Of a DNA stretch of 35,031 nucleotides, positions 1-17,413 are shown in pieces. The notes beneath the pieces were generated by a model. That model worked only from the letters and a program-made list of their open reading frames with translations. It was not told the origin of the DNA and searched no databases. The stretch comes from a virus (Duplodnaviria; Heunggongvirae; Uroviricota; Caudoviricetes). A program made the translations under genes and the position numbers. Location of the stretch: IMG/VR virus record IMGVR_UViG_638341082_000010, one strand, 5' to 3'. Position 1 is the stretch's first letter. Every line of letters begins with the position of its first letter.

Positions 1-1023
1 TTATGTGGATGAAATGTGGATGCCTCCTTTTAACGGATTAAGTGAAATTGCATCCTGGAGGAAATCAGGAGCGAGGTGCGCATAGGTCATAGTTTGCTGA
101 ATCGTGGCGTGCCCCATAATTCGCTGGAGCGTAAGTATATTTCCTCCATTAATCATAAAGTGAGCTGCAAAGGTATGGCGTAGAACATGTACAGCCTGTC
201 CCTTTGGTAGGTCTGGCTTAACACTGCGAAGCACCTTGCGATATTCCTCATAATTGACGTCAAACAAAAGGCCGGATTTCTTTGTTTTGATCTCACTAAC
301 AACCTCATCAGAGACAGGAATAATTCGAACTTTTCCGTTTTTAGTTTTGTTAAACGTCACGCGATTATTGATGATGTGTTCCGCGCGCAGATTTTTCGCT
401 TCTCCCCATCTCGCCCCAGTACTGAGACAAAGTAGCGTAATCCGCCGGGCATCACCGCTTACTGCATCCAGCAATTTGGCGATTTCTTCCGTGGTGAGGT
501 ACGTCATTTCGGGTGATTTTCGTTTCAAAGAGGGGAGGGCGCGGAGTGGATTTTCTCCGTGAAATTCCCCGGCATTTGCCAGGAGTGTAAACATTCCTCC
601 GAGATCCGACTCATCACGCCGAACAGTAGATTCTTTTACTCCTAAGGATAAACGGGAGCTTCGATAAGCTGCCATGAAACGAGCATTAATCTGGCTAACC
701 CTTGGATCATTCATTTCTTTGATGATTTTTTTCAATCTGGTTAGAACGCCGTTAGCATATGGCTTATTGCGTCCACCCAATTCCCACCATAATGGAAGCA
801 GATCTGAGAGATGACGTTGCTCTGTTGGCTTTTCAAGCCATTCCTTATCGTGCATGTGGCTGAGAACATAGCGCTCAAAGGCCACTGCATCTGCCTTTTT
901 CTTAAAAATCCGCTGAATCCGACGTCCACTTCGGCCACGCGGTCTAACATCCACTTTATACCGTCCACCATCGAGTGCCTTAATTGCCATTGGCAAGCCC
1001 TCCGGTGAAACGAGGAAAGACAT
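1..1023 (-). CDS. int: Tyrosine integrase (P2 Int-like)
   Basis: 340 aa; C-terminal catalytic motifs visible (GARWGEA, HVLRHTFA, YAHL); sits beside the repressor as in P2. Confidence 0.9.
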   Translation of the reverse strand: MSFLVSPEGLPMAIKALDGGRYKVDVRPRGRSGRRIQRIFKKKADAVAFERYVLSHMHDKEWLEKPTEQRHLSDLLPLWWELGGRNKPYANGVLTRLKKIIKEMNDPRVSQINARFMAAYRSSRLSLGVKESTVRRDESDLGGMFTLLANAGEFHGENPLRALPSLKRKSPEMTYLTTEEIAKLLDAVSGDARRITLLCLSTGARWGEAKNLRAEHIINNRVTFNKTKNGKVRIIPVSDEVVSEIKTKKSGLLFDVNYEEYRKVLRSVKPDLPKGQAVHVLRHTFAAHFMINGGNILTLQRIMGHATIQQTMTYAHLAPDFLQDAISLNPLKGGIHISST

Positions 1024-5651: not shown

Positions 5652-8474
5652 ATGACGACAGAGTACATCAGGGACTGGCAACAACCGCGCCACGCAGTGG
5701 GGCGTGAAGGAACGGGGATCCCCGCACCTGAATCCGCGCTTTCCTCCTGGCTGGATGCCTACCGGGCAGAGAACGAGCGCCGACAGGAAAAGGCTGATGC
5801 GGCGTTCTCCGCCACGCCGCTGGGCAACCTGATTAATAAAAGCCTGGATGCACAGGAAAAACAGGACAAAACTATCACACTGGCAGGAGACGTCAGAAAA
5901 CAGGCACGCGGCGCGGTGGATGAAGCCATGGCCTCGCTGCGCCTGCTGCCGTCCTATCTGCGCGATCCGCTTATTCGCCACCTCTCCTTCCTGCGCAAAA
6001 AACAGGAAGCCGATCGCCGGAAAGGCAAAAAGAGCTGGCAGGCGGAACGCTATGCACGCGGAACCCTGCGCAAAATATTCGAACGTCTGGATCGCACTGA
6101 CGGACGCTGGCTGACACCGGGTTATCGCTCCCTTGCCGGACGCGAACGCCTGGACGATTTGCTTTACCTGCCGCAGCTCAACAAACACCAGATACAGACG
6201 CTGGCCACCATGACGGCGGCGATGTTCAGCAGCACCTTCGAAAAACTCTGCGATGGCTTTGGCGCGACCGATGGCGAACTGACCATGGATGTAACGCTGA
6301 AGACGTATCAGATGCTGGCCCGCATGGCGTTACACCTGCACATCATGCCTCCACATTATGACGCACTGACAACAGATAAAGACCGGAGGAACGAACCGGA
6401 CACGGAGCTGCTGCCGGGCGCAGTCCTTCGCCTGACCTGTGCGGAATGGTGGAAACGCAAACTGTGGCTGTTACGTTGCGAGTGGAGAGAAGAACAACTC
6501 CGCGCCGCCTGTCTGGTTTCCAGAAAAACATCGCCCTATCTGAGCCAGGGCGCATTAAGCGAGTTTCGCGCACAGCGCGAGAAAACACGCGATTTCCTGA
6601 AAAGTTTCATGCTGGAAAATGAAGACGGGTTCACGATTGATCTCGAGACGGTGTATTACGCGGGAGTAAGTAACCCGGTTCACCGTAAGGCAGAAATGAT
6701 GACCACCATGAAGGGGCTGGAACTTCTGGCCGAAGCCCGTGGCGACAGAGCGGTGTTTCTGACTGTCACCTGCCCGTCAAAATACCACGCAACAACGGAG
6801 AACGGTCATCCGAATCCCAAATGGAACGGGGCCACCATGCGTGACTCCAGCGATTACCTGGTTAACACGTTTTTTGCGGCGGTCCGCAAAAAACTGAACC
6901 GCGACGGTCTTCGCTGGTATGGCATCCGCACGGTGGAGCCTCACCATGACGGCACTGTGCACTGGCATATGATGGTCTTTGCACATCCGGACGAGATTGA
7001 AACCATCGTGTCCCACGTCTGCGATATTGCCATTCAGGAAGACCGCCACGAGCTGGGCGATGACATAACTCCGCGTTTTAAAGCGGAGTACGTCGACGGC
7101 TCAAAAGGCACGCCAACCAGCTACATCGCCACCTACATCGGAAAGAACCTGGACAGCCGCGCCGTGGATGGTATCGACCCGAAAACGGGCAAGCCACGCG
7201 TTGACCACGAAACCGGAAAATCAATGGCCGAGAGCGTGGAGCGCGCCATCGGCTGGGCGCGCCTTCACCGGGTCCGCCAGTTCCAGTTCTTTGGCATCCC
7301 CTCCCGTCAGGTGTGGCGTGAACTGCGCCGCCTTGCCAGCCAGATGGCACGCAACCCGGAAGGCCCGCAACAGCTGAAGGATGACGCAATGGATGCAGTG
7401 CTCGCTGCCGCTGATGCCGGGTGTTTTGCCTCCTACATTGAAAAACAGGGCGGCGTACTTGTTCCACGCAAAGACTACCTGATTCGCACCGCCTACGACC
7501 TCGCAGATGAGCTGAACGATTACGGCGAACAGAGCGTACAGATTTACGGGATCTGGTCACCACTCATCGGGGAGTCTTCCCGTGTGTGCACACATCCGGA
7601 TAACTGGAAGCTGGTAAGACGTAAACCGGAAGCGGAAGACAGCGCCCGCGAAAATGGTTTTGACCTTCAGGGCGGCCCTGCCGCCCCTTGGACTCGTGGC
7701 AATAACTGTCCCCGTGTACAGGAAACGGACAACAACGGGACAGAACAGCCGGAAGAACGGCCAGCACCGTGGCCGCAGCTCCCTGACGGCGTTGAAGTGA
7801 ACGAATGGATGCGCTCACTGAAACGGCACGAACGCCGGGCGCTGATGCGTTCGCTGCGTGACAAGCAGGCAAAAAACAGCAGTGATGAAATGCAGAACTG
7901 GACACAGAGCCGCAAACAGCCACGGCCTTTGCCTGATAACCACGAATTACTCGCTAAAGAATGGCGGGAATCTGCCGAATCTCTCGGCCTGCATATCGGT
8001 GAACAGCAGATGCAGCACCTGTTACGGGGCGGCAGCCTGTACGTTGACGGCAGCATCATTGCACCACAGGGATTTGAAATTGTACGCAAACCGGATACCC
8101 GCCCGGACAGCCGAATCACGCAGCTCTGGCAGCACCTGAGCCGTAATCACGGCGTAAGCAGCACGGAGATCCGCCATAACCCGGTCGCCAGCTATCTGGA
8201 ACAGCTGGGGGCATCAGACCCCGAAGCCGCCGCACGTCTGGCATCCACACTTCAGCAGGACCAGAACACCATGAAAACCCCCGTTACCGTGCTTTCTGAC
8301 ATGCTGCGCGCCATTCGTGACGCAGAGCACGCACAGAGAATCAGTGAAACAACTGAACGCGCCCGCCGCAAAGCAGACCTGCTGCGGGGTGGCCTGACCA
8401 GTAGAAACAAAAAACAGACAGAAACGGGATTCACAAATCCCGTAAATGAGCAAAAAACGCGCCGCGATATATGA
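5652..8474 (+). CDS. A: Rolling-circle replication initiation endonuclease (P2 gpA family) with a long C-terminal extension
   Basis: 940 aa; HUH-type motif VHWHMMVF and paired catalytic tyrosines YIATYIGKN in the central domain. Confidence 0.9.
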   Translation: MTTEYIRDWQQPRHAVGREGTGIPAPESALSSWLDAYRAENERRQEKADAAFSATPLGNLINKSLDAQEKQDKTITLAGDVRKQARGAVDEAMASLRLLPSYLRDPLIRHLSFLRKKQEADRRKGKKSWQAERYARGTLRKIFERLDRTDGRWLTPGYRSLAGRERLDDLLYLPQLNKHQIQTLATMTAAMFSSTFEKLCDGFGATDGELTMDVTLKTYQMLARMALHLHIMPPHYDALTTDKDRRNEPDTELLPGAVLRLTCAEWWKRKLWLLRCEWREEQLRAACLVSRKTSPYLSQGALSEFRAQREKTRDFLKSFMLENEDGFTIDLETVYYAGVSNPVHRKAEMMTTMKGLELLAEARGDRAVFLTVTCPSKYHATTENGHPNPKWNGATMRDSSDYLVNTFFAAVRKKLNRDGLRWYGIRTVEPHHDGTVHWHMMVFAHPDEIETIVSHVCDIAIQEDRHELGDDITPRFKAEYVDGSKGTPTSYIATYIGKNLDSRAVDGIDPKTGKPRVDHETGKSMAESVERAIGWARLHRVRQFQFFGIPSRQVWRELRRLASQMARNPEGPQQLKDDAMDAVLAAADAGCFASYIEKQGGVLVPRKDYLIRTAYDLADELNDYGEQSVQIYGIWSPLIGESSRVCTHPDNWKLVRRKPEAEDSARENGFDLQGGPAAPWTRGNNCPRVQETDNNGTEQPEERPAPWPQLPDGVEVNEWMRSLKRHERRALMRSLRDKQAKNSSDEMQNWTQSRKQPRPLPDNHELLAKEWRESAESLGLHIGEQQMQHLLRGGSLYVDGSIIAPQGFEIVRKPDTRPDSRITQLWQHLSRNHGVSSTEIRHNPVASYLEQLGASDPEAAARLASTLQQDQNTMKTPVTVLSDMLRAIRDAEHAQRISETTERARRKADLLRGGLTSRNKKQTETGFTNPVNEQKTRRDI

Positions 8475-8519
8475 AGCGCGCACAAAACAGGCGAAAACGG
8501 GATTTAAAAATCCCGTAAA
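8422..8519. repeat. Two copies of a 20-bp palindrome (ACGGGATT-N4-AATCCCGT and ACGGGATTT-AA-AAATCCCGT) inside a roughly 40-bp direct repeat
   Basis: Read from sequence; first copy lies in the last codons of A, second about 35 bp upstream of the parM start. Confidence 0.5.
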
Positions 8520-8550
8520 CGATTAATTAATCAACATAAGGAAAAGCGAC

Positions 8551-9510
8551 ATGAAAATTTGTATCGACGACGGCTCCACCAACATCAAGCTGGCATGGAC
8601 TGAGAACGGCGAACGCCGCAACGCCATCAGCCCGAACAGCTTCAAGTCGGAATGGTCTGCGCCGTTCGGTGGCACGCAGCCCGCGAACTACATGCTTGAT
8701 GGCGTGCGCTATGGTTTTGATCCGGTCAGCGATCGCTTTGTCCAGACGACCGACACGCAATACCAGTACAGCGATGTGAATGTAATCGCCATTCACCACG
8801 CGCTGGTCAAATCAGGCATCACACCACAGGAAGTGGATGTGGTTGTTACCCTGCCACTGAGCGAGTATTTCGACACAAACGCACAGCCGGACATGGCCAA
8901 CATCAACCGCAAAAAAGCGAACGTTATGCGCCCGGTGGAGTACCAGAACGGCGAAGCATTCACTATCCGTAACGTGCGGGTTATGCCTGAATCCATTCCG
9001 GCTGGCTTTAAAGCACTGGCTGACATGAGTCCGTTTGAATCCCTGCTGATTGTGGATTTAGGCGGAACCACGCTGGATGTGGCAAAGGTTCAGGGGCAAC
9101 TGGCAGGTATCAGCCAGGTGTTTTGCGATCCACACGTAGGCGTCTCCCTGATGGCCGGTGCCGTGCTGTCGGTGATGGCCGCTAACGGTATGCGTACCAG
9201 TCACCACATCGCCAATACCATTATCGAACATCGCCATGATGAAGCCTGGTTGCGCCAACACATCCACAATGACGCGCATTACGCCAGCCTGATGGCGGTT
9301 ATTCGTGAAAAGGAAGAAACACTGAAACAACGCGTGATCCGCGCGCTGGCGGGTTTTTCGGGTTACGGGCGGGTGATGGTTGTCGGTGGCGGGGCGGAGA
9401 TTGTGGCACCCGCTATCCGCGAAGCCTGCGGAGTTAATGCGACTTTCATCGCGGACGGGGTGCCACAGTTTGCTCTGGTTAATGGGCTGTACGCAATGGA
9501 CAAGGAGTAA
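8551..9510 (+). CDS. parM: Actin-like plasmid segregation ATPase ParM/StbA
   Basis: 319 aa; N-terminus MKICIDDGSTNIKLAW and internal VMPESIPAG, DLGGTTLD, VMVVGGGAE, LVNGLY match the R1 ParM/StbA pattern. Confidence 0.85.
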   Translation: MKICIDDGSTNIKLAWTENGERRNAISPNSFKSEWSAPFGGTQPANYMLDGVRYGFDPVSDRFVQTTDTQYQYSDVNVIAIHHALVKSGITPQEVDVVVTLPLSEYFDTNAQPDMANINRKKANVMRPVEYQNGEAFTIRNVRVMPESIPAGFKALADMSPFESLLIVDLGGTTLDVAKVQGQLAGISQVFCDPHVGVSLMAGAVLSVMAANGMRTSHHIANTIIEHRHDEAWLRQHIHNDAHYASLMAVIREKEETLKQRVIRALAGFSGYGRVMVVGGGAEIVAPAIREACGVNATFIADGVPQFALVNGLYAMDKE

Positions 9511-9514
9511 ACCA

Positions 9515-9829
9515 ATGACGACACCAACCAGACGGATAAGTTTCTATCTGAAGCCAGTCGCCGTCAATAGTGAACGGGAGGCGTGTAATTACCTCGACAG
9601 CCTGCCAGCCTCTGAACGCAGCCGCGCGCAACGCGCGGCCTTTCTGGCCGGGCTGGCACTCATAAAACGCGATCCTGCATTTGCCTATTGGTTGGCCGAA
9701 TGGCCGGAAGAAGGAGCTGCGCCAGCCAAGAATAATATTCAGAGTAAATATGCCAGCACACCTGCCACCGGAAGCAATCACAGCACTAGCGAGATAAGAA
9801 AGAACATTCAGTCATTTTTCCCAGAGTGA
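9515..9829 (+). CDS. parR: ParR/StbB-like centromere-binding adaptor
   Basis: 104 aa from ATG after an AAGGAG RBS; N-terminus RRISFYLKP...LDSLPASERSRAQRAAFLAGLAL resembles R1 ParR. Confidence 0.75.
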   Translation: MTTPTRRISFYLKPVAVNSEREACNYLDSLPASERSRAQRAAFLAGLALIKRDPAFAYWLAEWPEEGAAPAKNNIQSKYASTPATGSNHSTSEIRKNIQSFFPE

Positions 9830-9848
9830 AAACAGGAGAGGAGCATCT

Positions 9849-10310
9849 ATGGCAACTATCCCCAAAAAATGGTTACAACGCAAAATTGCAGACCTTGAAT
9901 CGTGTCGTGAAGACATCCCGTTTGGCCTTGATGAAAACGATCACAATATGTTAATCGCACTGAAAATCGCACTCACATCGCTGGAAGCAGAGGCAGTTAT
10001 GTTCTGTATATCAGGACAAAATGTAGATTCAGAAGAACATGTATCAACCAGCAAAGCGGTTGTTGATGCCTGGGTTGAAGAATGGAATCAGGTTGACGGA
10101 AGTCCTGGCGAACCACTGTACAAAACTATGCCACTCTACTATCACGCTGCCTTGCCAGCGCCGGTAGTGCCGGAAGAAGCAACTCCGGAAAACGTAGAAA
10201 TGCTCTCTGGCTATGTTTCCACGTACAAATTAACCGATAGCGAGCGCGATATTGCTGCCGAAATATGGAACGCCTGCCGCGCCGCTATGCTTCATGGGAA
10301 AGGAGAGTGA
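9849..10310 (+). CDS. Hypothetical protein, lower-GC cargo
   Basis: 153-aa ORF with AGGAGAGGAG RBS; no recognisable motif. Confidence 0.55.
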   Translation: MATIPKKWLQRKIADLESCREDIPFGLDENDHNMLIALKIALTSLEAEAVMFCISGQNVDSEEHVSTSKAVVDAWVEEWNQVDGSPGEPLYKTMPLYYHAALPAPVVPEEATPENVEMLSGYVSTYKLTDSERDIAAEIWNACRAAMLHGKGE

Positions 10311-10311
10311 T

Positions 10312-10575
10312 ATGGCAACTTTAACAAAAAAAGAACGGGCATGGTTGAACGAATTACAGGACGTTCTTGATCGCTGCCCATCACCGAAAAAAATTGGTTT
10401 TTACACCATTGGCGATAAAAGCATTTACCTGTATGACCTGCGCCGCATGGATGAAATCATGGAGGCTCTTGATAATCGTTCGTCAATGGATTGGTGTGTT
10501 GCTGTCCATGATATGAATGCAGGGTTTGATGAAAAGATTTTGTTCCCCTCATCAGTTGAAAGCACAGCAGGATAA
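10312..10575 (+). CDS. Hypothetical protein, lower-GC cargo, coupled to the previous gene
   Basis: 87 aa from ATG at 10312 with AGGAGAG RBS, 1 bp after the upstream stop. Confidence 0.5.
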   Translation: MATLTKKERAWLNELQDVLDRCPSPKKIGFYTIGDKSIYLYDLRRMDEIMEALDNRSSMDWCVAVHDMNAGFDEKILFPSSVESTAG

Positions 10576-10610
10576 GGACCCAGCAAATATACACAACCTA
10601 TAAAACACTA

Positions 10611-10633
10611 AAGCGCCTCAGGGGCGCTTTTTG
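10611..10633 (+). terminator. Intrinsic terminator (AGCGCC-TCAG-GGCGCT then T5)
   Basis: GC hairpin plus T-run about 35 bp after the stop at 10575. Confidence 0.6.
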
Positions 10634-10635
10634 TT

Positions 10636-10662
10636 TGCACAAAAGTGCACAAATTTGCACAA
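10636..10662. repeat. Three direct TGCACAA repeats at exact 10-bp spacing
   Basis: Read from sequence: TGCACAAAAG TGCACAAATT TGCACAATTT. Confidence 0.5.
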
Positions 10663-10758
10663 TTTTTTTGAACGACTTTTTACCCTTCCGGCCCGCATGG
10701 CGGCTGGATCCGTCAAGGATCCGTGCGTGCACAAAAAAACGCGTTTTTTCTGCGCGCA

Positions 10759-10780
10759 GGTGACGGGGGAACAGCCCGCG
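10759..10780. other. Candidate cos-like GC-rich segment (GGTGACGGGGGAACAGCC)
   Basis: Partial resemblance to the recalled P2/186 19-nt cohesive-end sequences; position between the replication-side genes and Q matches the prophage map. Confidence 0.25.
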
Positions 10781-11035
10781 TTTCAGGGGGGTAAATAGCA
10801 TTCCCTGAATGATGTCGCAGAGACACAACAGAATGGCTGTATTTCTCATGCTGAGCGTGAAAAAGACGTGAGGGCTTTTGATTTGATGGGATGACAGATA
10901 GGGCTGTCAAAATCGCACTGAGGCAGTGAGAACATGCTGTCAGCGCGATGGGATTGCGTAAGAGTCCGGCAGTCGATGATGGCAATAAGTTGGAAGATGT
11001 CGTGAAATTATCTGATTGATACAGGAGCTGGAGAG

Positions 11036-11060
11036 TCGGGGCATAAATTTTTTATGCCCC
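11036..11060. promoter_or_regulatory. Perfect palindrome GGGGCATAAA-TTT-TTTATGCCCC about 100 bp upstream of the cargo gene
   Basis: 10-bp arms read from sequence; no flanking U-tract, so operator-like rather than terminator. Confidence 0.4.
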
Positions 11061-11162
11061 GGCGAAGCAGCAGACAAGCGAAGCGCGTCAGCGATACGGC
11101 ACCTTGCCGACCATACTTCATAAGTGCAAAATACGAGCAAAGAAATCAATGGAGGCTGTCTT

Positions 11163-11687
11163 ATGGTCATTAATTACAAGCAGTTAAGAGAAAAACGGGA
11201 GCAGGTAAAGGAGAGCTTTCGCCGCAATGAAGATCTGACCCCGCTTGTACGCCTTGCCCAGGGCATTGTTGATGCTTATGAAATCTCGCTGGAGCTGCCA
11301 TCACAGACCTGGACAGATAGCGACGGTAATCGCCAGCATTACGTTTCATGCGGACTGGAAGCAGCCGAAGGATTTCGCAGAATGCCTTTATCTCAGATCC
11401 CTGCCGCTACCCCCAAAGCACGGGGCTGCAATGATGAGCGAAAACTGACTTTTAGTATTGAAACGGTGGTTGACGACACACCTGGCGAAGTCGCGTTCGT
11501 GCACACTCCTGTTTCGATCGCAATGTATAACGATGAAATACAGGTTCGCGTTAATAATAATATCGTGCCACTTAAAGAAGGTAATTCACCATACACCACC
11601 GTTTGTGAAGCCATTCAATATTACGTTCTCTCTGAAATTGATAATCTCAAGCCTGACGGCACCCAGAAAATGGTTCAACTCTGGTAA
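11163..11687 (+). CDS. Hypothetical cargo protein between the cos region and the portal gene
   Basis: 174 aa from ATG with GGAGG RBS; lower GC than backbone; convergent with Q. Confidence 0.5.
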   Translation: MVINYKQLREKREQVKESFRRNEDLTPLVRLAQGIVDAYEISLELPSQTWTDSDGNRQHYVSCGLEAAEGFRRMPLSQIPAATPKARGCNDERKLTFSIETVVDDTPGEVAFVHTPVSIAMYNDEIQVRVNNNIVPLKEGNSPYTTVCEAIQYYVLSEIDNLKPDGTQKMVQLW

Positions 11688-11693
11688 AAAGGA

Positions 11694-11719
11694 CAGCCCC
11701 AATCACGGGGCTGTTTTTT
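11694..11719 (+). terminator. Intrinsic terminator hairpin (CAGCCCC-AATCA-CGGGGCTG then T6) overlapping the 3' end of Q
   Basis: GC stem plus T6 directly after the 11687 stop. Confidence 0.6.
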
Positions 11720-12749
11720 CATCAAGAAGAGCATAAGAATTAAAACGGATCACCTCTTCGCCAAGCCAGTCATTGATGTGCTTCATGGCCTCCATAACGG
11801 GCATCAGCTCGTTAATTGCATAAACCCGCGCGGCCTTCTCCACATCACCAAACGCACTTTTTTCGCCCGGCATCGCCCCCATCAGTTGCGGTGGAACACG
11901 GTGCGCAGCCAGCACATCATCACGGGATGCCGCCTTAACATTCATGAACTCATCTTTTGCGGTGATCTGCTGGAACGGCAAAATTTGCACCCCCTCTTTG
12001 CCCCCGTTGGGCGCATGGATGAGCACGTTTTTAAACGCACCACCACCACGCGCACCCTGTAACGTTTCTTTCAGGGAGTCCATGCTTTCGCGGTTTACCT
12101 GCGCTGCACCGATATAGATGATGCACCCGGCGTGGGATCCATTGTCGTAATACAGTTTTCTGAACATGTCCGCCGAATGAGACAGGCTGGCCGAGAGTAA
12201 TGCGCCAAGATATTCCGGCATGCCGTAAATTTCCTGGTTAATGTCCGGATTCATCAGGTGGCACACTTTGCCAGGGCGAAACTGAAACGCATCCTTGCCA
12301 TCCTGCACATACCACCATGATTCAAGATCGCTTCCGCGTCGCATGTATTTCGCCAGGGCGTGCCGTAATTTAAGCGGTTCGCCGAGCATATTGCTTCGAA
12401 GCTCAAGAAATGCGTTACCGAACACAAACCAGTCCAGCGCCAGCGCCGAGAAATCCTGCCGGGAAAGCAGCGGGTGCGGAATATAGCAACCGAGCAATAC
12501 ATTGCGCTTAAAGTAAAGCGCAGACTGATGCCAGGACGTTTGCCGGGCAGCTCTTGCCAGACCGTACCAGTCCACCGGGGTTTCATACCACCGCCCGTTA
12601 TCAGCACAGTACATATTGTCCAGCAAATCATGCCCGGTCAGGCGATAAGGACCATCAAATGTGAATGCACTGAGCGACGATTCTTTCCTGAGCGCATCAG
12701 CGAGATCAATGCGTGAACTCATGCGCACTTTTTTATTTTTTCTGCTCAT
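11703..12749 (-). CDS. Q: Portal protein (P2 gpQ family)
   Basis: 348 aa; divergent from O and directly downstream of P with ATGA overlap, as in P2. Confidence 0.9.
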   Translation of the reverse strand: MSRKNKKVRMSSRIDLADALRKESSLSAFTFDGPYRLTGHDLLDNMYCADNGRWYETPVDWYGLARAARQTSWHQSALYFKRNVLLGCYIPHPLLSRQDFSALALDWFVFGNAFLELRSNMLGEPLKLRHALAKYMRRGSDLESWWYVQDGKDAFQFRPGKVCHLMNPDINQEIYGMPEYLGALLSASLSHSADMFRKLYYDNGSHAGCIIYIGAAQVNRESMDSLKETLQGARGGGAFKNVLIHAPNGGKEGVQILPFQQITAKDEFMNVKAASRDDVLAAHRVPPQLMGAMPGEKSAFGDVEKAARVYAINELMPVMEAMKHINDWLGEEVIRFNSYALLDEKTAP

Positions 12750-14500
12750 CAGAACTCCATAACCGTAAAACGCTCGTTTTCCCCTTCGCCGCCAATTGGT
12801 TCGTTAATGACAGCAAGCATGGTTGCCCACGCAAGGTCGCCGTGGCTGATCCCCCTCGCACGGTCCGTTTCGTAAGTGATAAAACCGCCCGGTGTTTTCA
12901 CCTTACGCACGGCGTTAAAGGCCGCGACCAGCTCGCGTTCGGCGCGATCGTATTCCCACCGCCCGGCACGCATTATTTGCAGCATTTTCAGTACCAGCGA
13001 CCGTTTTGATGACAGCGTGAAGGTGTACGGAATAGCAGCAGGGAAAAACCGTTTCACTATCTGATAAACAGCCTCCCCGTTCCCGCCCGTCACATCAATG
13101 CCGATGTGTTCCACGTTGTAGCGACACGTGAACTCTTCAATGACTCTGGCCTGTTCTTCAAACTCCAGCCCCTGAACGCGTCGCGTCTCCACCGTTCGAA
13201 AACGGCCACCAGGAACAGCCGGAGGAACCACCACGGACACAGCGCCGCTGTCGCCGTTGCCACTGCTGCCGTTTGCGTCATACCCAATCCATACCGGACG
13301 ATTCCCCATCGGGCGGGGAGCAAAAGGTTTCCAGTCTTTCCAGTCGTCGTATCCGTCAACACCGCAGCCAATCAGGATATTCAGGTTAAATGCCGATTCC
13401 CCTTCGCGGACAAACTCACACATATAGAGATTGCGGAACTCGTCTTCGGTGTTTTCATCACGAATTTCGTCAATATCGGTGTGTTTCCAGCCGTGATTAA
13501 CCACATCTTCCAGCGTGACAATTTGCCGCCACGTCCGGTCAGGGCAGATAAGCCCGTTATGCAGCGTTTTCCAGTCCACAGAAAAACGCTGGCGTTTATG
13601 CGTGGCCTTTTTCTCGTTCCAGTGGTCGCCGTTCCAGTAGGCGTATGCCTCGTGCGTTTCGGTGGATGGCGTGGAGAAGTAGGTGCGCCGCAGTCCGCTG
13701 AGGGTTGCCATAGCGCCAGCCACCTTGCGCAGTTCAGCAAAGCGACTGACCCAGAAAAATTCATCAAAATAAAAATTGCCCGTATAGGACTGTGCCGACG
13801 CAGCAGAAGTGCCGAGAAAATGCAGCTCTGCACCGTTGGAGAGGATGATTTTATCGCCCCCTTTCAGCTCCACATCAACTTCAGCCGCGGCCTTCTGAAT
13901 AATGCTTTTGAACTGGAACGCCTGACGACGCGACGCAGACAAAAAAATCTGGTTACGCTGGTAAGGTTGCGCCACATCGTCACGCAGCGCCATCAGCAGA
14001 GCTTCCTGTGCAAAATACCAGGTCGCCCCAATCTGTCGGGATTTCAGGATCATCCTGTTACGTATCTCGGCTTCCTTGCAAAGTGTCAGGGAGTCAAACC
14101 AGCCCCGCTGATGCCACTCCAGCCTGCTGATGATTTTTTCCCGCAGTGCGGCAATCTGTTCCGGCGTGAAATGATTTTTGAGTTTTTTCGCCCGGCCTTT
14201 CTTTCCTGCGGCCATCACATCCGGCTGGCCATCATGCAGCTTTTTAAGCTGCCGGGTCAGCAGGTCTATTTCCTTAAAGTCACCGCCTGTTTTATTCTGT
14301 TTTTCAGTAAGCTGGATGAGGCGCGCATCGATGGACTGCGTGACACGCTGCACGGGTGGCGTTTCATCCCACTGGTCGCGTTTTTTCCACGCATAAACCG
14401 TGTTCGGGTTTATTCCCATCAGACGTGATATTTCTGCGGGCGGATAACCCTGCCAGTAAAGTTGCCGCGCACGCTGGCGCACAAAAGCGTCCTGAATCAT
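12749..14500 (-). CDS. P: Terminase large (ATPase) subunit (P2 gpP family)
   Basis: 583 aa; N-terminal HTH region and conserved position upstream of Q. Confidence 0.9.
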   Translation of the reverse strand: MIQDAFVRQRARQLYWQGYPPAEISRLMGINPNTVYAWKKRDQWDETPPVQRVTQSIDARLIQLTEKQNKTGGDFKEIDLLTRQLKKLHDGQPDVMAAGKKGRAKKLKNHFTPEQIAALREKIISRLEWHQRGWFDSLTLCKEAEIRNRMILKSRQIGATWYFAQEALLMALRDDVAQPYQRNQIFLSASRRQAFQFKSIIQKAAAEVDVELKGGDKIILSNGAELHFLGTSAASAQSYTGNFYFDEFFWVSRFAELRKVAGAMATLSGLRRTYFSTPSTETHEAYAYWNGDHWNEKKATHKRQRFSVDWKTLHNGLICPDRTWRQIVTLEDVVNHGWKHTDIDEIRDENTEDEFRNLYMCEFVREGESAFNLNILIGCGVDGYDDWKDWKPFAPRPMGNRPVWIGYDANGSSGNGDSGAVSVVVPPAVPGGRFRTVETRRVQGLEFEEQARVIEEFTCRYNVEHIGIDVTGGNGEAVYQIVKRFFPAAIPYTFTLSSKRSLVLKMLQIMRAGRWEYDRAERELVAAFNAVRKVKTPGGFITYETDRARGISHGDLAWATMLAVINEPIGGEGENERFTVMEF

Positions 14501-16612: not shown

Positions 16613-17413
16613 ATGATTACTCCTGCACAGCAACACTGGCAGAACGTGATGGCACAGCGCGCAGGCCGGGCGAATGAAGGCGTGGACCATGCCGCGCGTA
16701 CCGCGCATGAAGAGGTGCTGTATCGTCTGCGTCTGGCACAGGCCCGGCTTAAGGGCGTACAGGCCAGAAGCGCGAAAGCCGCCATCAAAAAAGAGTTGTT
16801 GCCGGATTTTTCCGGCTGGATTGAGGGAACGCTGGAGGCTGACGGCGGGCAGCAGGATGAAGTGATTGCCACGCTGATGGTGTGGGCGATTGACTGTGGC
16901 GATCTTCCGCTTGCGCTGCGTATCGGCGCGTATGTGGTCCATCACAACCTCATCATGCCGGATAACTTTGGCCGTACTGCTGCCACGGTACTGACCGAAG
17001 AAATCTGTAATCCGGTACTGACGCAGGCCGGGACGGATGCCGACGCGGATTTGTCCGCCTTTATCGAACCACTGGACACCCTCCGGGAGATTGTCACCGA
17101 CCAGGACATGCCGGACGAAGTGCGCGCCAAATTATGCAAGGCGTGCGCCTTTGCCCGCCGTGGCCTGAGTGATGCGGACAGCATGGCCCTGTCACTGAAG
17201 CTGCTGCGCGAAGCGATGCACCTGAACCCGAACGCAGGTGTGAAACGCGAGATTGCAACCCTTTCCCGCGCCCTGAAAAAAGCCGATTCCGCAGCCGCAC
17301 CAGAAGACGCCAGCACACCGCAGGCGCAGGACGAAAGCAGCAAAAGTAAAAAGACAACGCGGAAGCCTGCAACACGAAAAACCACCGCGACGCAGAAGGC
17401 GAAGCGCGGTTAA
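16613..17413 (+). CDS. M: Terminase small/endonuclease subunit (gpM)
   Basis: 266 aa; position after N; basic C-terminal tail. Confidence 0.85.
   Translation: MITPAQQHWQNVMAQRAGRANEGVDHAARTAHEEVLYRLRLAQARLKGVQARSAKAAIKKELLPDFSGWIEGTLEADGGQQDEVIATLMVWAIDCGDLPLALRIGAYVVHHNLIMPDNFGRTAATVLTEEICNPVLTQAGTDADADLSAFIEPLDTLREIVTDQDMPDEVRAKLCKACAFARRGLSDADSMALSLKLLREAMHLNPNAGVKREIATLSRALKKADSAAAPEDASTPQAQDESSKSKKTTRKPATRKTTATQKAKRG

Follow-up and report, generated by a model that had tools for sequence, protein, structure and literature searches.

The window analysed here is a 35,031-nucleotide stretch of tailed-phage DNA (Caudoviricetes; IMG/VR virus record IMGVR_UViG_638341082_000010), which, judged by its sequence, is a P88-like prophage (genus Xuanwuvirus, Peduoviridae) of the P2 family. 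A non-coding block at positions 10636-10785 of this window is probably the cohesive-end site (cos) of the prophage, and the TGCACAA direct repeats it contains would be the array by which the packaging enzyme, terminase, recognizes its DNA. This assignment rests on three observations: the block starts at the first TGCACAA, it contains the sole match in the window to the core of P2-type cohesive ends, and its repeats stand at distances from that core like those in P2, 186 and P4. A preliminary description of the window, made from the letters alone, had taken a region of about 550 bp (10576-11123) for a cos region and left undecided whether its repeats served packaging or the nearby partition system. 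The identity as cos is retained, the functional element is narrowed to about 150 of the 548 bp flagged, and the question of packaging or partition is answered in favour of packaging.

Conserved block and predicted cohesive end

The two edges of the block were obtained from different sets of sequences. Among 72 unique close relatives, from which variability along the region was also estimated (Table 1), the DNA left of 10636 was wholly unrelated, with more than 15 different cargo ends, and homology started exactly at the first TGCACAA. In P4-like satellites, homology extended from the repeats through TGCGCGC and ended some 26 bp to the right of the left nick, where hotspot DNA began. The left boundary in the relatives and the right boundary in the satellites together delimit a functional block of about 150 bp, 10636-10785, and this is the one strongly conserved non-coding stretch from the variable accessory genes to the portal gene. 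DNA identity to Escherichia phage P88 and its relatives was 90-96% across the flagged region, and a 161-bp segment covering the block (10630-10790) was present in 1140 of 5426 complete Escherichia coli genomes (~21%); in E. coli FORC_069 it matched the window at 100%.

The region had been described as non-coding, and this was borne out. None of the 40 RefSeq E. coli genomes listed, out of the 1140 carriers, annotates anything under 10630-10790, near-identical relatives differ by single-base indels in homopolymers (A6/A7, G5/G6), and a scan of 9500-12500 against Rfam at E<=1 gave no match. A small open reading frame (ORF) annotated in P88 (gp22) and P88_4B11 (gp01) is broken in the window by a stop codon (10887-10926; CAG TGA vs CGG CGA). 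From these four observations together we take the region to be non-coding, and the annotation of the small ORF in P88 and P88_4B11 is probably spurious.

The preliminary description had noted a GC-rich segment loosely resembling the P2/186 cohesive ends. The segment is present, but the P2 cohesive-end 19-mer itself had no match in the window within 3 mismatches, and the exact or near-exact P2 end was dropped as a locator. A family-level core pattern, GG[CT]G..G.?GGGG, was used in its place and gave one match in the 35-kb window with both strands searched (GGTGACGGGGG at 10759). The same pattern was applied to 80 prophage loci of different bacterial species, fetched via the portal protein (46-100% identity), where each 13-kb locus usually had one occurrence; this was on the expected strand, as a rule 200-300 bp beyond the stop codon of the portal gene. 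The segment GGTGACGGGGGAACAGCCC in the window aligns with the 19-nt cohesive ends annotated in the GenBank records of P2 and 186 (the ends of P4 are annotated likewise), and it lies in the 20 bp that vary least across the region (variability 0.002 among close relatives). By homology to these ends, the top-strand nick would fall immediately 5' of G10759 and the bottom-strand nick about 19 nt rightward, giving 5' ends GGTGACGGGGGAACAGCCC; a 19-nt 5' overhang is thus expected by analogy, and the placement of the right-hand nick is uncertain by about 1 nt. Across the survey, the flank left of the predicted top-strand nick reads agcgcgcaGG or agcgggcaGG.

Three records that seemed at first to bear on the ends were set aside. 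The linear P88_4B11 record breaks off inside the stretch from the distal array to the inverted repeat described below, without overlap, and the break looks arbitrary. The IMG/VR contig L068 (IMGVR_UViG_2681813261_000011) seemingly ends at the predicted nick; what abuts CA/GGTGAC there is the end of an IS1 element (…GTCATTACC / CAGGTGACGG, the slash marking the predicted nick), which is not evidence of cleavage. Neither is contig L043, which merely stops at the first repeat.

Repeat geometry in P2-like phages and satellites

Three TGCACAA copies start at 10636, 10646 and 10656, in the exact 10-bp phase given by the preliminary description, and a fourth, which it had missed, starts at 10728. The window holds 6 copies of this heptamer versus 8.9 expected, and 4 of the 6 are inside 100 bp, the remaining two (2165 and 20972) lying outside the immunity/switch region. 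Among exact 7-mers, TGCACAA alone forms a triple spaced at 10 or 11 bp anywhere in the window, and such a phased triple appeared in 0 of 2000 first-order Markov simulations of the whole window.

In order to compare the geometry of the array, prophages of about 60 species and 148 P4-like satellites were aligned on the predicted nick, and positions were counted from the left nick. In the window, TGCACAA is found at -123, -113, -103 and -31, whereas TGCAT is found at -123, -111, -101 and -29 in P2, and at -124, -111, -101 and -29 in 186 and the satellite P4. Three motif classes, TGCAC(AA), TGCAT and CCGTCA, shared one geometry. In the TGCAC(AA) class, consisting of 31 non-redundant enterobacterial loci, copies occurred at -123, -113 and -103 in 18, 17 and 19 loci, respectively, and at -31 in 18 loci; a sub-class has its copies at -111, -101 and -29, i.e. 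2 bp nearer the nick, and the proximal copy was at -31 or -29 in 28 of the 31. In the TGCAT class, each position was occupied in 10-22 of 22 loci, with -29 occupied in all 22, and in the CCGTCA class (8 betaproteobacterial loci) positions of about -109, -99 and -27 were occupied in 5-7 of 8 loci each. The motifs had a background frequency of about 0.004 per position. All three classes have the proximal copy 72 bp beyond the third distal one. The CCGTCA loci, which are from Acidovorax, Rhodoferax and other Betaproteobacteria (L134-L142, L160), had the core GGCG(C/G)GGCGGGGTCTCGAC.

The satellites provided a second series of arrays. P4-like satellites have only cos in common with their helpers (PMC9122126), and in the 148 loci sampled from IMG/VR (L175-L333) the repeats, the core and the spacer length were kept while the sequence of the spacer drifted. 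All 148 had a cos of the TGCAT class; a TGCACAA-class cos was found in none of them in two Psu-based scans, which covered Psu-bearing IMG/VR satellites only. Both classes, TGCAT (P2, 186) and TGCACAA, are found in E. coli.

Regarding the DNA between the distal and proximal repeats, an imperfect GC-rich inverted repeat was observed at 10688-10707, with a perfect core CCGC-atg-GCGG at 10693-10703. An inverted repeat near -60 was present in most loci with differing sequence (mean best stem 5.1 bp vs 4.0 bp in shuffles). The GGATCCG direct repeat pointed out earlier was found at 10706-10712 and 10717-10723, and through this duplication the window has two GATC (Dam) sites, at 10708-10711 and 10719-10722. 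A GATC at -41 was seen in 19 of 31 loci of the TGCACAA class vs 2 of 22 of the TGCAT class (survey loci L094-L130), and a link between methylation and packaging is possible. The A7-CGCG-T6 palindrome of the preliminary description exists at 10733-10749 but is not conserved: the first T of its T-run, 10744, is C in about half of the close relatives, and in other genera the A-tract is kept and the palindrome is absent, so that the conserved part is the A-tract beside the proximal repeat. The palindrome and the GGATCCG duplication are therefore lineage-specific and not conserved features of the site.

Taken as a whole, the site has what is seen in the cos of P2-like phages. As in P2, 186 and P4, its place is between the variable region that follows the replication gene and the 3' end of the portal gene. 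It has a G-rich core starting GG(C/T)G, which is preceded by GCG(C/G)GC(A/G) and occurs only once in the window. It has three distal and one proximal TGCA-containing direct repeats at fixed distances from the nick (about -123, -112, -102 and -30), with an A-tract after the proximal one, and P2 and 186 have the same pair of terminase genes, of gpP and gpM type. On the other hand, the window has TGCACAA at 10+10 bp spacing instead of TGCAT at 12-13+10 bp, about 7 of the 19 positions of its predicted end GGTGACGGGGGAACAGCCC depart from GGCGAGGCGGGGAAAGCAC, a 1-nt shift being required to align the two, and the GATC at -41 is characteristic of the TGCACAA class. The map position agrees with the layout described for P2-like phages, in which the hotspot adjoins cos between gpA and gpQ (PMC9122126). 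Of Ziermann & Calendar 1990, PMC5694545 and PMC5247547 mention only a conserved core of 55 bp.

Compared with better studied systems, the site would also resemble the cos of lambda, where short repeats read by the packaging enzyme are arrayed next to a nicking site and the DNA in the interval is bent. Lambda cos, with R sites bound by gpNu1 and a site for integration host factor (IHF), is functionally the nearest well-studied model. The overhang is, however, predicted to be 19 nt here and is 12 nt in lambda, all conserved recognition sequence is on the side that faces away from the terminase genes and would form the right end of the mature genome, and no IHF consensus was found. In addition, the model of the small terminase subunit has no winged helix, and the large subunit carries its own helix-turn-helix (HTH). 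With repeats away from the packaging genes, no winged helix in the model and a P2-type core, the site is not of the lambda type, whose subsites are laid out as cosQ-cosN-cosB (PMC4669245).

From the observed position, conservation and geometry of the site, we infer the following course of binding, bending and nicking. The four direct repeats would be sequence-specific docking sites of terminase; with the distal sites one helical turn apart and the proximal site 72 bp (about seven turns) further on, all four would be on roughly the same face of the helix. The intervening DNA with its A/T tracts may be bent or wrapped, which would place the bound enzyme over the nicking site, and the nuclease domain could then be positioned on the GCGCGC-flanked core and make the staggered nicks. 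P2-type phages are reported to package monomeric circles. If such circles are packaged here, a single cos would serve both initiation and termination, which would fit the one-sided recognition sequence.

Several observations weigh against this assignment. At the nucleotide level the block is no more than about 51-53% identical to P2, 186 and P4; the comparison with P2 and 186 cos proposed earlier yields a shared geometry without close sequence similarity. The relationship is one of architecture, the nick is located by analogy, and the 2-bp offset between the sub-classes leaves some slack in that placement. The central inverted repeat is absent from P2 itself. None of the phage records in the collection has its first base at the predicted end, and no report of binding, cleavage or end mapping for this phage lineage was found in the literature and records searched. 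The model of the small subunit has no recognizable DNA-binding fold. Motif class and terminase sequence both follow phylogeny, and their association is not independent evidence of contact. Finally, in one relative (L032, IMGVR_UViG_3300007747_000080) a deletion spanning about 80 bp between short stretches of similar sequence has removed the three distal repeats; the distal repeats may not be strictly essential, or this prophage may be defective. The prophages of L032 and L068 are both probably packaging-defective.

Candidate readers and competing explanations

DNA recognition is normally credited to the small terminase subunit. In the window, the large subunit has an N-terminal HTH (residues 6-63; PF06056, and generic HTH families too) followed by an ATPase and an RNase H-like nuclease, its Pfam matches being PF06056, PF03237 and PF17289; an HTH on the large subunit is unusual. 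The small subunit (PF05944) was modelled as an all-helical repeat fold with a disordered basic C-terminal tail (mean predicted local distance difference test score, pLDDT, 82.7). A fold search with this model gave only weak tetratricopeptide repeat (TPR)-like matches, with a best E of 0.017, and a sequence search of solved structures gave no match for either terminase subunit. The tail (residues 230-266) is a longer K/T/A-rich stretch in this lineage; P2/186-type relatives (L146-L173) have a tail with the AT-hook-like KRGRPRKV, and an A/T tract follows each of the cos repeats.

The putative recognition helix of the large subunit reads NQNTVYAWKKRD in the TGCAC class, RPTVQSWKQRD and variants in the TGCAT class, and PRSTVQGWKDAE in the CCGTCA class, and the first 20 residues of the small subunit segregate with the repeat class likewise. 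Two Pectobacterium loci (L124 and L126) combine distal repeats of the TGCAC type with a core of the 186 type, and both of their terminase subunits group with the TGCAC class. Covariation was considered as a means of picking the reading subunit and given up, since the HTH of the large subunit and the N-terminus of the small subunit both track the motif class. Because the motif changes among phage lineages of E. coli while the geometry is fixed, the reader is most probably encoded by the phage; as far as the sequences tell, it would be either the HTH of the large subunit or the small subunit, which the data do not separate.

A host architectural protein of the IHF, Fis or H-NS type might instead bind the repeats and bend cos, terminase reading only the GC-rich core. 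The A/T tracts that flank each repeat in helical phase would suit such a protein, and lambda cos has IHF between its terminase sites; nevertheless, we regard this as improbable, since a host factor would not require different motifs in one host and both TGCAT (P2/186) and TGCACAA occur in E. coli. Moreover, the motif class shifts together with the terminase sequence, and inspection of the sequence by eye revealed no good IHF consensus. The repeats could also act as a promoter or operator for rightward transcription over cos, for instance of an unannotated RNA or of the accessory gene 11163-11687, for which no promoter is apparent. Despite the similarity of TTGCAC to a -35 hexamer, this is quite improbable: the promoter scan found no sigma-70-like site in 10576-11123, Rfam gave no RNA match, TGCACAA is absent from the immunity/switch region, and relatives that lack the accessory gene keep the array, as do satellites whose right-hand DNA is unrelated. 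Least credible of all is that the phased repeats are a functionless product of chance or of slippage in low-complexity DNA. TGCACAA is indeed not over-represented in the window overall, but no simulation produced such a triple, and the positions of the repeats are conserved across genera while the flanking DNA is replaced.

The presence of ParM and ParR-like genes 0.8-2 kb upstream of the array raises the alternative that the repeats are a parC centromere, bound by ParR and segregating a plasmid form of the prophage. ParR-bound centromeres typically carry phased direct repeats, and in this respect the array is like the parC of R1-type ParMRC systems. We nonetheless consider a centromere here very hard to credit. 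Unlike parC, which lies next upstream of parM and overlaps its promoter, the array lies some 2.1 kb past the start of parM, with two genes and a terminator between it and parR, and its position is locked to the cos core and not to parM. Co-inheritance was not observed either: ParM was within 6 kb in only 1 of the 31 species loci with a TGCAC-type array, 13 near-identical relatives with enough flanking sequence had the array without ParM, and in phiT5282H and 3LV2017 the array is beside unrelated cargo with no ParMR.

Furthermore, the canonical place of a centromere, directly upstream of parM, is filled by a separate pair of palindromes. A 42-nt direct repeat is present in two copies (8408-8449 and 8481-8522), which straddle the end of the replication gene, and each contains a 20-bp palindrome, ACGGGATT(C/T)A(C/A)AAATCCCGT (8424-8443 and 8497-8516). 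A strict palindrome pattern failed on sequence variation, and conservation was read by direct inspection, in which the palindromes were conserved in 45 of 45 distinct parM upstream sequences. This pair is likely to be the true centromere/operator of ParMR. Since the array accompanies portal and terminase genes and the cos core in about 30 species whose prophages lack ParM in the vicinity, an equivalent array is present in satellites, and ParMR has palindromes of its own, the repeats are assigned to packaging and not to partition. The preliminary description had compared the phased repeats with several kinds of protein-binding array; their use in packaging is supported by their position, the unique match to the cos core and the geometry of P2/186/P4, whereas the centromere and the iterons are not supported. 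As to iterons, more than 2 kb separate the array from the replication gene (5652-8474), an interval taken up by the partition operon, two small genes and a terminator, and the distance that stays fixed is the one from the array to the cos core; this verdict rests on the distance of the replication gene and the position of the array, no search for an unwinding element or DnaA boxes having been made.

Prophage context and implications

The features of the window that bear on the site are summarized in Table 1. The genes are ordered from the replication protein through ParM/ParR and the small genes to the flagged region, the portal and terminase, and the capsid genes are located between the genes of the large and small terminase subunits.

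Table 1. Features of the window around the predicted cos, with variability among 72 close relatives
Feature	Positions	Strand	Basis or remark
Integrase	1-1023		ORF list
Replication protein, 940 aa	5652-8474		ORF list
ParM	8551-9510		Pfam/PHROG annotation
ParR-like protein	9518-9829		
Two small genes downstream of the ParR-like gene	last end at 10575		
3' end and terminator of upstream cargo operon	10576-10635		
Intrinsic terminator, hairpin and T-run	10610-10630	+	Terminator scan; last variable hotspot piece, outside cos
Distal array, three TGCACAA	10636-10662	+	-123, -113, -103; candidate terminase sites, left cos boundary
Variability 0.002-0.065	10637-10783		Minimum over predicted cohesive end
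Fixed-length spacer	10663-10727		T/A tracts 10663-10669 and 10676-10680
Proximal TGCACAA	10728-10734	+	-31 from predicted nick, followed by A-tract
GCGCGC-A flank left of predicted top-strand nick	10752-10758		Invariant or nearly so in close relatives
Predicted cohesive-end segment GGTGACGGGGGAACAGCCC	10759-10777	+	Core match, alignment, variability 0.002
Right edge of conserved cos block	10778-10785		End of satellite homology; variability rises from ~10784
Variability 0.06-0.24	10784-11003		
Less conserved spacer without conserved reading frame	10786-11003		No assigned function
Almost invariant 88-bp block	11004-11091	-	Hairpin 11037-11061, perfect 11-bp stem, 3-nt loop
Variability about 0.001-0.02	11004-11091		
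Accessory gene, 174 aa, phrog_5091	11163-11687	+	Function unassigned; inserted between hairpin block and portal
Portal gene	11703-12749	-	
Large terminase subunit, P2 gpP homologue	12749-14500	-	
Small terminase subunit, P2 gpM homologue	16613-17413	+	PF05944

To the right of the cos block, the terminase-portal operon probably has its 3' end or terminator in the 11004-11091 block. The hairpin of this block lacks a T-run on both strands. Where relatives lack the accessory gene, the block directly follows the portal stop codon, and similarity to P88-type records stops at window position 11091, which corresponds to the portal stop codon, the accessory-gene insert starting from about 11092; the block is retained in the window though the accessory gene separates it from the portal. 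The 174-aa accessory gene is present in PhiR44_2 and not in P88, and lies across cos from the usual hotspot, on the "wrong" side for an accessory gene. Pfam and PADLOC gave no match for its product, and scans of the neighbouring small genes for defence systems and against PHROG returned only entries of unknown function. A prophage of Salmonella enterica strain s1 (L094, CP191473.1) has a portal 99.7% identical and a ParM 97% identical to those of the window, a similarity that by sequence speaks for recent movement of this phage type between Escherichia and Salmonella.

The site is largely explained as the expected packaging site of a very common prophage type in a lineage-specific spelling. 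Its description gives precise cos coordinates for a lineage present in about one-fifth of complete E. coli genomes, which can be used for setting genome starts, for cosmids or transducing particles, and for delimiting the adjoining hotspot of defence genes. It also means that the cos of the P2 family reaches well beyond the usually cited 55-bp core and includes a position-locked array whose sequence varies with lineage, although the 1990 paper may already describe the distal repeats. A bolder proposal, which we put forward tentatively and think rather unlikely to hold in full, is that the array is a packaging-specificity code of the whole P2 family, with fixed geometry and exchanged letters, read by the HTH of the large subunit, and with a variant that escapes P4-like satellites. 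If this were true, phages of the TGCACAA/GGTGAC type would be unusable as helpers for P4-like satellites, and divergence of cos would be an escape from molecular piracy. The absence of the TGCACAA variant from the P4-like satellites sampled hints that the spelling of the array may bear on the specificity between helpers and satellites.

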